Of a stretch of DNA of 64,000 bases, positions 2,320 through 50,515 are shown in pieces. The DNA lies in assembly GCF_044647545.1 (NCBI RefSeq), contig NZ_CP172818.1. The stretch is one strand, 5' to 3'. The notes beneath the pieces are model-generated. The model did no database searches and was not told where the DNA came from. It saw only the letters and a list, made by a program, of their open reading frames with translations. This DNA comes from Escherichia coli. GTDB lineage: Bacteria; Pseudomonadota; Gammaproteobacteria; Enterobacterales; Enterobacteriaceae. Within the stretch, counting starts at the first letter, position 1. Every line of letters starts with the position of its first letter. Made by a program: the position numbers and the translations under genes.

Positions 2320-4164
2320 ATGATTAAAAAAGCTTCGCTGCTGACGGCGTGTTCTGTCACAGCCTTTTCTGCTTGGGCACAGGATACCAGCCCGGATACT
2401 CTCGTCGTTACTGCTAACCGTTTTGAACAGCCGCGCAGCACTGTGCTTGCACCAACCACCGTTGTGACCCGTCAGGATATTGACCGCTGGCAGTCGACCT
2501 CGGTCAATGATGTGCTGCGCCGTCTTCCGGGTGTCGATATCACCCAAAACGGCGGTTCAGGTCAGCTCTCATCTATTTTTATTCGCGGTACAAATGCCAG
2601 TCATGTGCTGGTGTTAATTGATGGCGTCCGCCTGAATCTGGCGGGAGTGAGTGGTTCTGCCGACCTTAGCCAGTTCCCTATTGCGCTTGTCCAGCGTATT
2701 GAATATATCCGTGGACCGCGCTCCGCTGTTTATGGTTCCGATGCAATAGGCGGGGTGGTGAATATCATCACGACGCGCGATGAACCCGGAACGGAAATTT
2801 CAGCAGGGTGGGGAAGCAATAGTTATCAGAACTATGATGTCTCCACGCAGCAACAACTGGGGGATAAGACACGGGTAACGCTGTTGGGCGATTATGCCCA
2901 TACTCATGGTTATGATGTTGTTGCCTATGGTAATACCGGAACGCAAGCGCAGACAGATAACGATGGTTTTTTAAGTAAAACGCTTTATGGCGCGCTGGAG
3001 CATAACTTTACTGATGCCTGGAGCGGCTTTGTGCGCGGCTATGGCTATGATAACCGTACCAATTATGACGCGTATTATTCTCCCGGCTCACCGTTGCTCG
3101 ATACCCGTAAACTCTATAGCCAAAGTTGGGACGCCGGGCTGCGCTATAACGGCGAACTGATTAAATCACAACTCATTACCAGCTATAGCCATAGCAAAGA
3201 TTACAACTACGATCCCCATTATGGTCGTTATGATTCGTCCGCGACGCTGGATGAGATGAAGCAATACACCGTCCAGTGGGCAAACAATGTCATCGTTGGT
3301 CACGGTAGTATTGGTGCGGGTGTCGACTGGCAGAAACAGACTACGACGCCGGGTACAGGTTATGTTGAGGATGGATATGATCAACGTAATACCGGCATCT
3401 ATCTGACCGGGCTGCAACAAGTCGGCGATTTTACCTTTGAAGGCGCAGCACGCAGCGACGATAACTCACAGTTTGGTCGTCATGGAACCTGGCAAACGAG
3501 TGCCGGTTGGGAATTCATCGAAGGCTATCGTTTTATCGCTTCTTATGGCACGTCGTACAAGGCACCTAATCTTGGGCAACTGTATGGTTTCTACGGAAAT
3601 CCGAATCTGAATCCTGAGAAAAGCAAACAGTGGGAAGGCGCGTTTGAAGGCTTAACCGCTGGGGTGAACTGGCGTATTTCCGGATATCGTAACGATGTCA
3701 GTGATTTGATCGATTATGATGATCACACCCTGAAATATTACAACGAAGGGAAAGCGCGGATTAAGGGGGTCGAGGCGACCGCCAATTTTGATACCGGACC
3801 ACTGACGCATACTGTGAGTTATGATTATGTCGATGCGCGTAATGCGATTACCGACGTGCCGTTGTTACGCCGTGCTAAACAGCAGGTGAAATACCAGCTC
3901 GACTGGCAATTGTATGACTTCGACTGGGGTATTACTTATCAGTATTTAGGCACTCGCTATGATAAGGATTACTCATCTTATCCTTATCAAACCGTTAAAA
4001 TGGGCGGTGTGAGCTTGTGGGATCTTGCGGTTGCGTATCCGGTCACCTCTCATCTGACAGTTCGTGGTAAAATAGCCAACCTGTTCGACAAAGATTATGA
4101 GACAGTCTATGGCTACCAAACTGCAGGACGGGAATACACCTTGTCTGGCAGCTACACCTTCTGA
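2320..4164 (+). CDS. btuB: TonB-dependent outer-membrane vitamin B12 receptor BtuB, 614 aa
   Basis: ORF track 2275..4164; true start taken at ATG 2320 ([20 protein letters not shown] signal peptide, TonB box DTLVVTANR); C-terminal aromatic residue typical of beta-barrel. Confidence 0.95.
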
Positions 4165-4966
4165 ACCACGTCCCACCGTGCTGGTGTTTGACTCCGGCGT
4201 CGGTGGGTTGTCGGTCTATGACGAGATCCGGCATCTCTTACCGGATCTCCATTACATTTATGCTTTCGATAACGTCGCTTTCCCGTATGGCGAAAAAAGC
4301 GAAGCGTTTATTGTTGAGCGAGTGGTGGCAATTGTCACCGCAGTGCAAAAACGTTATCCCCTTGCGCTGGCTGTGGTCGCTTGCAACACTGCCAGTACCG
4401 TTTCACTTCCTGCATTACGCGAAAAGTTCGACTTCCCGGTTGTTGGTGTCGTGCCGGCGATTAAACCTGCTGCACGTCTGACGGCAAATGGCATTGTCGG
4501 ATTACTGGCAACCCGCGGAACAGTTAAACGTTCTTATACTCATGAGCTGATCGCGCGTTTCGCTAATGAATGCCAGATAGAAATGCTGGGCTCGGCAGAG
4601 ATGGTTGAGTTGGCTGAAGCGAAGCTGCATGGCGAAGATGTTTCTCTGGATGCGCTAAAACGTATCTTGCGTCCGTGGTTAAGAATGAAAGAGCCGCCAG
4701 ATACCGTTGTATTGGGTTGCACCCATTTCCCTCTACTACAAGAAGAACTCTTACAGGTGCTGCCAGAGGGAACCCGGCTGGTGGATTCTGGCGCAGCGAT
4801 TGCTCGCCGAACGGCCTGGCTGTTAGAACATGAAGCCCCGGATGCAAAATCTGCCGATGCGAATATTGCCTTTTGTATGGCAATGACGCCAGAAGCTGAA
4901 CAATTATTGCCCGTTTTACAGCGTTACGGCTTCGAAACGCTCGAAAAACTGGCAGTTTTAGGCTGA
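4109..4966 (+). CDS. murI: Glutamate racemase MurI, 285 aa
   Basis: ORF track 4097..4966; start taken at ATG 4109 ([11 protein letters not shown]...); overlaps 3' end of btuB by 56 nt in another frame. Confidence 0.93.
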
Positions 4967-4984: not shown

Positions 4985-5215
4985 GGTCAGAAAATTATTT
5001 TAAATTTCCTCTTGTCAGGCCGGAATAACTCCCTATAATGCGCCACCACTGACACGGAACAACGGCAAACACGCCGCCGGGTCAGCGGGGTTCTCCTGAG
5101 AATCTCAACAGAGAAAAGCAAAAAAATGCTTGACTCTGTAGCGGGAAAGCGTATTATGCACACCCCGCACCGCTGAGAAAAAGCGAAGCGGCACTGCTCT
5201 TTAACAATTTATCAG
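4985..5215 (+). promoter_or_regulatory. rrnB control region: UP element + P1 (-35 TTGTCA 5012-5017, -10 TATAAT 5034-5039), P2 (-35 TTGACT 5130-5135, -10 TATTAT 5152-5157), boxA antiterminator (TGCTCTTTAACAA 5195-5207)
   Basis: Hexamers with 16-nt spacing read directly; AT-rich UP element upstream of P1; boxA motif in leader. Confidence 0.85.
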
Positions 5216-5338: not shown

Positions 5339-6880
<1,542 letters not shown>

Positions 6881-6958
6881 CCTTAAAGAAGCGTACTTTG
6901 AAGTGCTCACACAGATTGTCTGATAGAAAGTGAAAAGCAAGGCGTAAGCAGACGATAC

Positions 6959-7034
6959 GTCCCCTTCGTCTAGAGGCCCAGGACACCGCCCTTTCACGGC
7001 GGTAACAGGGGTTCGAATCCCCTAGGGGACGCCA
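6959..7034 (+). tRNA. gltT: tRNA-Glu (UUC) in 16S-23S spacer
   Basis: GTCCCCTTCGTCTAGAGGCCCAGGACACCGCCCTTTCACGGCGGTAACAGGGGTTCGAATCCCCTAGGGGACGCCA, 76 nt. Confidence 0.97.
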
Positions 7035-7229
7035 CTTGCTGGTTTGTGAGTGAAAGTCACCTGCCTTAATATCTCAAAACTCATCTTCGGGTGACGTTTG
7101 AGATATTTGCTCTTTAAAAATCTGGATCAAGCTGAAAATTGAAACACTGAATAGTCGAAAGATTATTCGTGAGTCTCTCAAATTTTCGCAACACGATGAT
7201 GAATCGAAAGAAACATCTTCGGGTTGTGA

Positions 7230-10134
<2,905 letters not shown>

Positions 10135-10225
10135 ACAACGCCGAAGATGTTTTGGCGGATGAGAGAAGATTTTCAGCCTGATACAGATTAAATCAGAACG
10201 CAGAAGCGGTCTGATAAACAGAATT

Positions 10226-10345
10226 TGCCTGGCGGCCTTAGCGCGGTGGTCCCACCTGACCCCATGCCGAACTCAGAAGTGAAACGCCGTAGCGCCGATG
10301 GTAGTGTGGGGTCTCCCCATGCGAGAGTAGGGAACTGCCAGGCAT
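10226..10345 (+). rRNA. rrfB: 5S ribosomal RNA (rrnB operon), 120 nt
   Basis: TGCCTGGCGGCC...GGGAACTGCCAGGCAT. Confidence 0.97.
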
Positions 10346-13810: not shown

Positions 13811-13886
<76 letters not shown>

Positions 13887-13894
13887 TCAAGTCC

Positions 13895-13979
<85 letters not shown>

Positions 13980-14095
13980 ATTTCGGCCACGCGATGGCGT
14001 AGCCCGAGACGATAAGTTCGCTTACCGGCTCGAATAAAGAGAGCTTCTCTCGATATTCAGTGCAGAATGAAAATCAGGTAGCCGAGTTCCAGGAT

Positions 14096-14170
<75 letters not shown>

Positions 14171-14176
14171 AGATGT

Positions 14177-14252
14177 GCTGATATAGCTCAGTTGGTAGAG
14201 CGCACCCTTGGTAAGGGTGAGGTCGGCAGTTCGAATCTGCCTATCAGCACCA
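14177..14252 (+). tRNA. thrT: tRNA-Thr (GGU)
   Basis: GCTGATATAGCTCAGTTGGTAGAGCGCACCCTTGGTAAGGGTGAGGTCGGCAGTTCGAATCTGCCTATCAGCACCA. Confidence 0.96.
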
Positions 14253-33539: not shown

Positions 33540-33650
33540 AAAGGCGATGCGATAGCAGATTAACTCTTGTTCCCTTCGCAGGTATTAGCCTGATCAGGTT
33601 CCGCGGATCCCGAATAAACGGTCTCAGCCAGTTAAGGCACTCCGACAAGA
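33540..33650 (-). promoter_or_regulatory. TPP riboswitch (thi box) in thiC leader
   Basis: Reverse complement reads ...GGCTGAGACCG...GGGATCCGCGGAACCTGATCAGGCTAATACCTGCGAAGGGAACAAG..., the conserved THI-element core, ~100 nt upstream of thiC start. Confidence 0.8.
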
Positions 33651-33705
33651 AATTAGCCCCGCAAACGGGGCGTTGAATGTAAATTACGCGTTAACAGCGC
33701 AGAAC

Positions 33706-45501: not shown

Positions 45502-47043
<1,542 letters not shown>

Positions 47044-47128
47044 CCTTAAAGAAGCGTACTTTGAAGTGCTCACACAGATTGTCTGATAGAAAGTGAAAAG
47101 CAAGGCGTCTTGCGAAGCAGACTGATAC

Positions 47129-47204
47129 GTCCCCTTCGTCTAGAGGCCCAGGACACCGCCCTTTCACGGCGGTAACAGGGGTTCGAATCCCCTAGGGGAC
47201 GCCA
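47129..47204 (+). tRNA. gltV: tRNA-Glu (UUC) in 16S-23S spacer
   Basis: Identical 76-nt sequence to gltT. Confidence 0.97.
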
Positions 47205-47399
47205 CTTGCTGGTTTGTGAGTGAAAGTCACCTGCCTTAATATCTCAAAACTCATCTTCGGGTGACGTTTGAGATATTTGCTCTTTAAAAATCTGGATCAA
47301 GCTGAAAATTGAAACACTGAATAGTCGAAAGATTATTCGTGAGTCTCTCAAATTTTCGCAACACGATGATGAATCGAAAGAAACATCTTCGGGTTGTGA

Positions 47400-50303
<2,904 letters not shown>

Positions 50304-50395
50304 ACAACGCCGAAGGTGTTTTGGCGGATTGAGAGAAGATTTTCAGCCTGATACAGATTAAATCAGAACGCAGAAGCGGTCTGATAAACAGAATT

Positions 50396-50515
50396 TGCCT
50401 GGCGGCCTTAGCGCGGTGGTCCCACCTGACCCCATGCCGAACTCAGAAGTGAAACGCCGTAGCGCCGATGGTAGTGTGGGGTCTCCCCATGCGAGAGTAG
50501 GGAACTGCCAGGCAT
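50396..50515 (+). rRNA. rrfE: 5S ribosomal RNA (rrnE operon), 120 nt
   Basis: Identical to rrfB copy. Confidence 0.97.

Follow-up and report, generated by a model that had tools for sequence, protein, structure and literature searches.

The overlap of btuB and murI in Escherichia coli and a probable murI promoter within the last codons of btuB

The start of murI, an essential cell-envelope gene, lies inside the end of btuB, the gene for a B12 receptor whose leader carries a cobalamin riboswitch, and this raises the question of how murI is kept free of repression by B12. We examined the locus in a stretch of 64,000 nucleotides of E. coli DNA (contig NZ_CP172818.1), here called the window; coordinates are window positions, and all features given with them lie on the plus strand. 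The btuB gene occupies 2320-4164, from ATG 2320 to TGA 4162-4164, and its open reading frame translates into a TonB-dependent B12 receptor of 614 amino acids. The murI gene occupies 4109-4966, from ATG 4109 to TGA 4964-4966, and encodes a glutamate racemase of 285 amino acids; RefSeq carries both genes. The original prediction, that murI initiates out of frame 56 nt inside the 3' end of btuB, is exact in coordinates and description, and the open reading frames and RefSeq both place ATG 4109 within the last 18 btuB codons, as it had stated. The 56 shared nucleotides (4109-4164) encode residues 597-614 of BtuB and, in the other frame, residues 1-18 of MurI together with two bases of its codon 19. 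Relative to btuB, the murI frame is +1, its ATG starting one base into the btuB Tyr codon at 4108-4110, and the bases read twice comprise 18 btuB sense codons and the stop.

The BtuB protein matches the Pfam domains Plug and TonB_dep_Rec_b-barrel (PF07715 and PF00593), the plug and 22-strand barrel of a TonB-dependent receptor. Its C terminus reads ...YTLSGSYTF, with the aromatic residue Phe last, and SGSYTF is kept in all loci compared. MurI matches the Pfam family Asp_Glu_race (PF01177; E = 3.3e-22) and aligns over its full length with PDB 2JFN (2 residue differences over 285 amino acids; E = 4.7e-187). In a 42-sequence alignment, C92, C204, D28, S29, G30, G32, and G33 are invariant, which accounts for the catalytic Cys pair and the DSG.GG motif. 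From these matches MurI is classed as a glutamate racemase of the Asp/Glu racemase fold. For the K-12 protein, racemase activity and activation by UDP-MurNAc-L-Ala are known from the literature and cited in PMC10802341.

The locus differs from that of K-12 at strain level only. The K-12 genes btuB (b3966; 4163639-4165483 in the MG1655 RefSeq record NC_000913.3) and murI (b3967; 4165428-4166285) overlap by the identical 56 nt, the junction is equal save one base nearby, and MurI carries 2 substitutions relative to the K-12 protein in 2JFN. The gene order is likewise shared: yijD, trmA, riboswitch, btuB, murI, and an rrn operon. Phylogroup-F-type strains such as CE10 and ST648 are 100% identical to the window over 3600-4600, and the RefSeq record of CE10 annotates the same 56-nt overlap.

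The btuB leader contains a cobalamin (AdoCbl) riboswitch aptamer at 2065-2254 (Rfam RF00174; 87.8 bits, gathering score 31.5), also annotated in CE10, and by this match btuB would be a cobalamin riboswitch-controlled gene. PMC11162775 reports that AdoCbl acting on the btuB riboswitch blocks translation, which is followed by Rho-dependent termination at +81 to +210 of the open reading frame. Placed by position only, the region mapped in K-12 would correspond to 2400-2529 of the window. We assume that Rho-linked repression operates here as in K-12, because the leader is near-identical to that of K-12. With termination so early in btuB, read-through into murI must fall, so that the question of how murI escapes B12 repression, posed in the original prediction, is a legitimate one.

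The overlap itself is a long-known and annotated feature of E. coli, and the internal start is already in a public dataset. In PMC8921622, btuB and murI are described as "well-characterized" overlapping open reading frames sharing 56 bp, both of them called translated by most Ribo-seq tools. Our comparison contributes support from across the order, both for the start codon and for a putative promoter embedded in btuB. Conservation of the overlap across strains, which had been proposed as a check, was borne out: of 5426 complete E. coli genomes, 5425 contain the 127-nt junction (4044-4170) at 95% identity or more. We also sampled the murI locus from 80 Enterobacteriaceae species, and 78 of them have an intact btuB whose end lies exactly 56 nt past the conserved murI ATG. 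In the remaining two, btuB is disrupted upstream, by an in-frame stop in Intestinirhabdus alba and by a frameshift in one Citrobacter amalonaticus assembly, and the junction sequence is kept. The same 56-nt overlap occurs in Proteus, Serratia odorifera, and Xenorhabdus nematophila, whose MurI proteins are 66 to 76% identical to that of the window; conservation of the overlap thereby spans three families of Enterobacterales. On sequence comparison a chance open reading frame is excluded, and btuB/murI qualifies as a genuine co-directional out-of-frame overlap in which both products match their own families and the spacing is fixed.

The murI frame opens after a TAG at 4073-4075, and the candidate starts that follow are ATG 4097, ATG 4109, GTG 4178, and GTG 4184. 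ATG 4109 is found in 80 of 80 Enterobacteriaceae species, and no other in-frame start is conserved throughout the order. A Shine-Dalgarno-like GAGA, read from the sequence, lies at 4099-4102, its GAG ending 7 nt before ATG 4109; across 79 sequences this codon is fixed at 100% as GAG in preference to GAA, and Proteus, Serratia, and Xenorhabdus retain it as well. The E. coli MurI that was crystallised (2JFN), a cloned construct, is the 285-residue protein beginning MATKLQ. That the overlap is real and that MurI starts at 4109 can be regarded as practically certain.

A start at ATG 4097 (4097-4099) would give a protein of 289 amino acids beginning MRQSMATK and an overlap of 68 nt. Both the window and K-12 have this codon in an open murI frame, and the original 1992 description of murI reportedly predicted 289 residues, in agreement with such a start. 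However, the T that creates ATG 4097 is the minority variant of a btuB TAT/TAC codon at 4096-4098, where TAC, the majority form, is used in 97% of sequences; ATG 4097 occurs only in the window, in K-12, and in one other Escherichia locus, the other Escherichia and all other genera having TAC. No Shine-Dalgarno-like sequence precedes it, RefSeq and the crystallised protein both have the 285-residue form, and a transcript 5' end at 4081, discussed below, would leave a leader of only 16 nt. ATG 4097 is not conserved and we do not take it as the start; initiation there is very improbable.

The original prediction would also fall if MurI started beyond the btuB stop, at GTG 4178 or GTG 4184, in which case there would be no real coding overlap and the N-terminal extension would be an annotation artefact. 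Other glutamate racemases do begin roughly there, residues 1-13 have low confidence in the structural model described below, and, according to a TraDIS preprint (10.1101/2025.12.01.691526), the overlap tolerates transposon insertions, at a ratio of about 10:1 in favour of one orientation. That orientation bias counts against the later starts, the authors crediting transcription and translation starts supplied by the transposon. Moreover, several genera lack the GTG codons, while ATG 4109 shows no variation; no Shine-Dalgarno-like sequence precedes GTG 4178 or GTG 4184; and the beginning MA..Q.(D/E)NT is recognisable even in Proteus and Xenorhabdus. We consider a start at either GTG scarcely credible and retain ATG 4109.

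The shared nucleotides appear to carry different weight in the two frames. In the AlphaFold2 model of MurI the mean pLDDT is 93, residues 1-13 have a pLDDT below 50, and the first strand begins at residue 21. Other MurI proteins align from residue 17 or later, mostly from about 20-26. From the low pLDDT and the late alignment of the homologues, the 56 nt probably encode a disordered N-terminal tail of MurI, about 20 residues long in all, read over the codons of the BtuB C-terminal strand. Between E. coli and Proteus, 6 of 18 residues are changed in the BtuB frame of the overlap and about 11 of 19 in the MurI frame, so that BtuB appears to be the more constrained reading.

The tail is present in the Enterobacterales MurI proteins compared and absent from Shewanella and the other homologues compared. 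Racemases that lack it (the MurI of Shewanella decolorationis and PDB entries 1B73, 2JFX, and 1ZUW) share the fold and the catalytic residues, but, unlike E. coli MurI, they begin 3-10 residues before the first strand. In Shewanella decolorationis, murI directly adjoins a divergent trmA; btuB does not intervene, and both the overlap and the tail are absent. In Zooshikella and one metagenomic contig, murI has other neighbours, and two further contigs outside Enterobacterales are too short to show the neighbours of murI. Most other MurI representatives outside the order are metagenomic proteins. A literature search for a role of the MurI N-terminal tail gave nothing useful.

For each btuB codon in an alignment of 79 Enterobacteriaceae sequences, we took the sequences with the majority amino acid and calculated the fraction that use one synonymous codon. 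The reference region, 3409-4059, had a mean fraction of 0.60 over 152 degenerate codons. Within the overlap (4108-4161; 18 degenerate codons) the mean was 0.98, and directly before it (4060-4107; 16 degenerate codons) it was 0.93; the P values against the reference, 9e-12 and 1.8e-9, respectively (Mann-Whitney), compare regions inside one alignment of related species and do not represent independent events. Dual coding would by itself lead to high fixation in the overlap. The block of low synonymous variation upstream of it (4060-4108) is not dual-coding, the murI frame being closed by the TAG at 4073-4075.

That block contains an extended -10 element, TGGTAAAAT, at 4065-4073, inside the btuB codons for Arg-Gly-Lys-Ile. 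Its TGn directly precedes a TAnnnT hexamer, the arrangement of an extended -10 sigma-70 promoter, and the third codon positions at 4065, 4068, and 4071 are 100% fixed. The pattern TGnTAnAAT is kept in every genus inspected. Where Lys is replaced by Arg, in Cedecea, Serratia, and Proteus, the Arg codon is AGA and the element becomes TGGTAGAAT; where Gly is replaced by Ala, in Xenorhabdus, the TG is retained and the element becomes TGCTAAAAT. The window contains 7 copies of TGNTANAAT, where 5.7 would be expected, and, given this lack of enrichment, we did not count the motif alone as evidence. No -35 match was found for the element at 4065-4073, and the promoter scan of the window made no call there. 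The only plus-strand candidate that the scan gave in the 3' half of btuB, at 3936-3963 (TTATCA-16-TATGAT), was rejected, synonymous variation there being ordinary (0.4-0.6).

A published transcript 5' end coincides with this element. Table S1 of Mendoza-Vargas et al. 2009 (PMC2760140), a genome-wide map by the RegulonDB group, lists a murI 5' end at -28, detected by 454 (HTPS) with a frequency of 2, and assigns it the -10 box tcgtGGTAAAATagcc, or GGTAAAAT in extended form, with the TG extension marked "yes". Both the box and the distance to the ATG equal those of the window, where the element occupies 4065-4073 and the 5' end falls at 4081, 28 nt before ATG 4109 and after a gap of 7 nt from the -10 box. 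An end about 7 nt past the hexamer has the spacing of a promoter start, here published from two reads. The method maps cDNA 5' ends, and a search of the text of PMC2760140 showed no 5'-triphosphate selection step. With two 454 reads and no such step, the 5' end could be a processing site. The mapped base at 4081 is a C, a less usual initiating base. The Kim 2012 supplements do not mention murI. The Mendoza-Vargas entry is a two-read high-throughput call (PMC2760140, Table S1), to which the present comparison adds order-wide synonymous-site conservation. Two independent lines, the 5' end at -28 and the synonymous fixation from 4060 onward, support the internal promoter in btuB that the original prediction held to be implied, and we judge such a promoter for murI to be likely.

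The conserved block could instead reflect the needs of translation initiation alone. In that case murI would have no promoter of its own and would depend on residual read-through from btuB, and the 50 conserved nucleotides would serve ribosome landing, the Shine-Dalgarno sequence, an unstructured region, or coupling to btuB translation. In keeping with this, PMC10802341 treats btuB-murI as one operon, a scan of the window found no terminator-like site between the two genes, and the evidence for a transcription start amounts to two reads. A ribosome footprint with a Shine-Dalgarno sequence would explain roughly the last 20-25 nt before the ATG, but the fixation reaches 45-50 nt upstream and falls exactly on the TG and TAnAAT bases, with AGA used when Lys changes to Arg; the mapped 5' end, moreover, lies 7 nt past the -10 box. 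Rho terminates early in btuB in the presence of AdoCbl, yet murI is essential. A strain in which a kanamycin cassette replaces the btuB start codon and the rest of the first ~1000 bp of the gene is viable, as stated in the TraDIS preprint (10.1101/2025.12.01.691526). The cassette in that strain could itself drive transcription into murI. Overall, we regard an absence of any murI promoter as improbable.

Alternatively, the synonymous conservation might serve BtuB itself and not murI, for example by pacing the folding or targeting of the last beta-strands through codon choice, or through a conserved RNA structure. The C terminus of BtuB is highly conserved as a protein, and one Ile residue in the block is encoded by ATA, a rare codon in E. 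coli. However, the third position of that codon is among the least fixed in the block (0.70), and btuB pseudogenes retain the block. We rejected RNA structure as an explanation, since neither a stable structure (z = -0.24) nor covariation was found over 4081-4170. A function in BtuB alone is therefore hardly plausible as the reason for the conserved block, and a murI promoter remains the reading that we prefer.

In the account that we favour and consider probable, the known btuB-murI junction yields MurI from ATG 4109, and murI is transcribed by two routes. One would be read-through from the riboswitch-controlled btuB promoter, which AdoCbl would cut through the action of Rho early in btuB. 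The other would be the internal sigma-70 extended -10 promoter, with transcription from about 4081 and a leader of ~28 nt that carries the GAG Shine-Dalgarno-like element. This second route would free murI expression from B12, and we infer that it is the main B12-independent source of MurI.

A comparable arrangement is that of ftsZ, an essential downstream gene served from upstream coding sequence by promoters inside ddlB, ftsQ, and ftsA. As in that case, a promoter within upstream codons would free an essential cell-envelope gene from the control of the gene before it. The two cases differ in that the btuB and murI frames overlap by 56 nt and in that btuB is shut by a riboswitch and Rho and not by promoter regulation.

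A very different btuB allele was seen in 283 of the 5426 complete E. coli genomes (about 5%); in the stretch from roughly 2410 to 4000 its protein shares 56 to 57% identity with the common BtuB, and its DNA shares about 55%. The 3' boundary of the divergent segment lies at about 4002 in one example and at about 4053 in another. Both boundaries precede the -10 box, which would follow if murI holds the last ~105 nt of btuB in place, and in all E. coli strains with a replaced allele the 55-105 nt directly before the murI ATG are retained.

A broader reading, which we put forward tentatively and think rather doubtful, is that the promoter, leader, and overlap form one unit of ~105 nt (4060-4164), fixed across Enterobacterales, that would be the main B12-independent source of MurI and would constrain the evolution of btuB. 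Replacement btuB alleles, selected by phage and colicin pressure, would always recombine upstream of the unit, and btuB pseudogenes would retain it. Overprinting of the last strand of BtuB, once btuB came between trmA and murI, would have created the MurI tail, which may have acquired a function later on, such as a part in the UDP-MurNAc-L-Ala dependence of the enzyme.

The arrangement also has practical meaning for work on btuB. A clean deletion of btuB is impossible without harm to the essential murI, and the TraDIS preprint (10.1101/2025.12.01.691526) gives the overlap as the reason for the absence of btuB from the Keio collection and also describes false murI hits in phage-receptor transposon screens. 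Where btuB is engineered, whether for resistance to phage or colicins or with B12 uptake in view, at least its last ~105 nt should be spared, because the probable murI promoter, the leader, and the start codon are located there. The locus opens no new question, and it offers a tidy example of how an essential gene situated behind a riboswitch-controlled gene would be kept independent of it.

A second, deeply divergent btuB allele is segregating in E. coli, as seen when window positions 2410 to 4053 are set beside two of the murI loci taken for comparison, L004 and L003. Across the mature protein, the divergent DNA is only about 55% identical to that of the window and the encoded BtuB protein 56 to 57% identical, whereas the flanks are 98 to 100% identical. 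Of 5426 complete E. coli genomes, 283 carry this allele at the btuB locus, and the sequence pattern suggests that the receptor was replaced under pressure from phages or colicins. The 3' junction of the divergent segment falls at approximately 4002 in L004 and 4053 in L003 (window coordinates), in both cases upstream of the candidate murI -10 box. Interrupted btuB copies were found in Intestinirhabdus alba (L040, 1637 to 3556), with an in-frame stop, and in Citrobacter amalonaticus (L065, 1612 to 3556), with a frameshift that could stem from misassembly. Both loci nevertheless retain an intact stretch of the final ~170 nucleotides of btuB, along with the -10 box and the 56-nucleotide overlap with murI. 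A search of 5426 E. coli genomes for the btuB-murI junction gave no match in one genome, and two of the matches in the E. coli collection lie on records classed as plasmids.

Within btuB, a synonymous TAT/TAC polymorphism at the codon 4096 to 4098 creates an ATG at 4097 that is in frame with murI and would yield a 289-amino-acid MurI. TAT is the minority state, present among the loci compared only in the window, K-12, and L005. The genome-wide 5'-end map of 2009 lists another murI-associated 5' end at +178, with a -10 candidate tttcGATAACGTcgct and a frequency of 2 (PMC2760140). This end and its -10 candidate correspond to approximately 4262 to 4287 of the window, inside the murI coding sequence; the 5' end probably reflects RNA processing or noise.

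The window contains two complete rRNA operons, at 5339 to 10343 and 45502 to 50513, each with an Rfam StyR-44 match in its 16S-23S spacer (7112 to 7222 and 47282 to 47392). Downstream of murI, two strong promoter-like sites are predicted at 5012 to 5039 and 5130 to 5157, which fit the tandem rrn promoters. The spacer of the operon that follows murI carries a single tRNA-Glu (6959 to 7034), whereas that of E. coli strain CE10 carries tRNA-Ile and tRNA-Ala; CE10 and the window are identical over 3600 to 4600. Other RNA features of the window are four clustered tRNA genes (13811 to 14249, plus strand), a match to the Rfam sRNA family P26 (19232 to 19293, plus strand), and a TPP riboswitch (33554 to 33654, minus strand).

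Four representative MurI relatives with 46 to 56% identity (P0125, P0129, P0130, and P0131) are rich in lysine and isoleucine, a composition that may point to insect endosymbionts, and each has an N-terminal tail that is either shortened or rewritten. Loss of btuB from the organisms encoding these proteins, should it have occurred, would leave the MurI tail free to decay.
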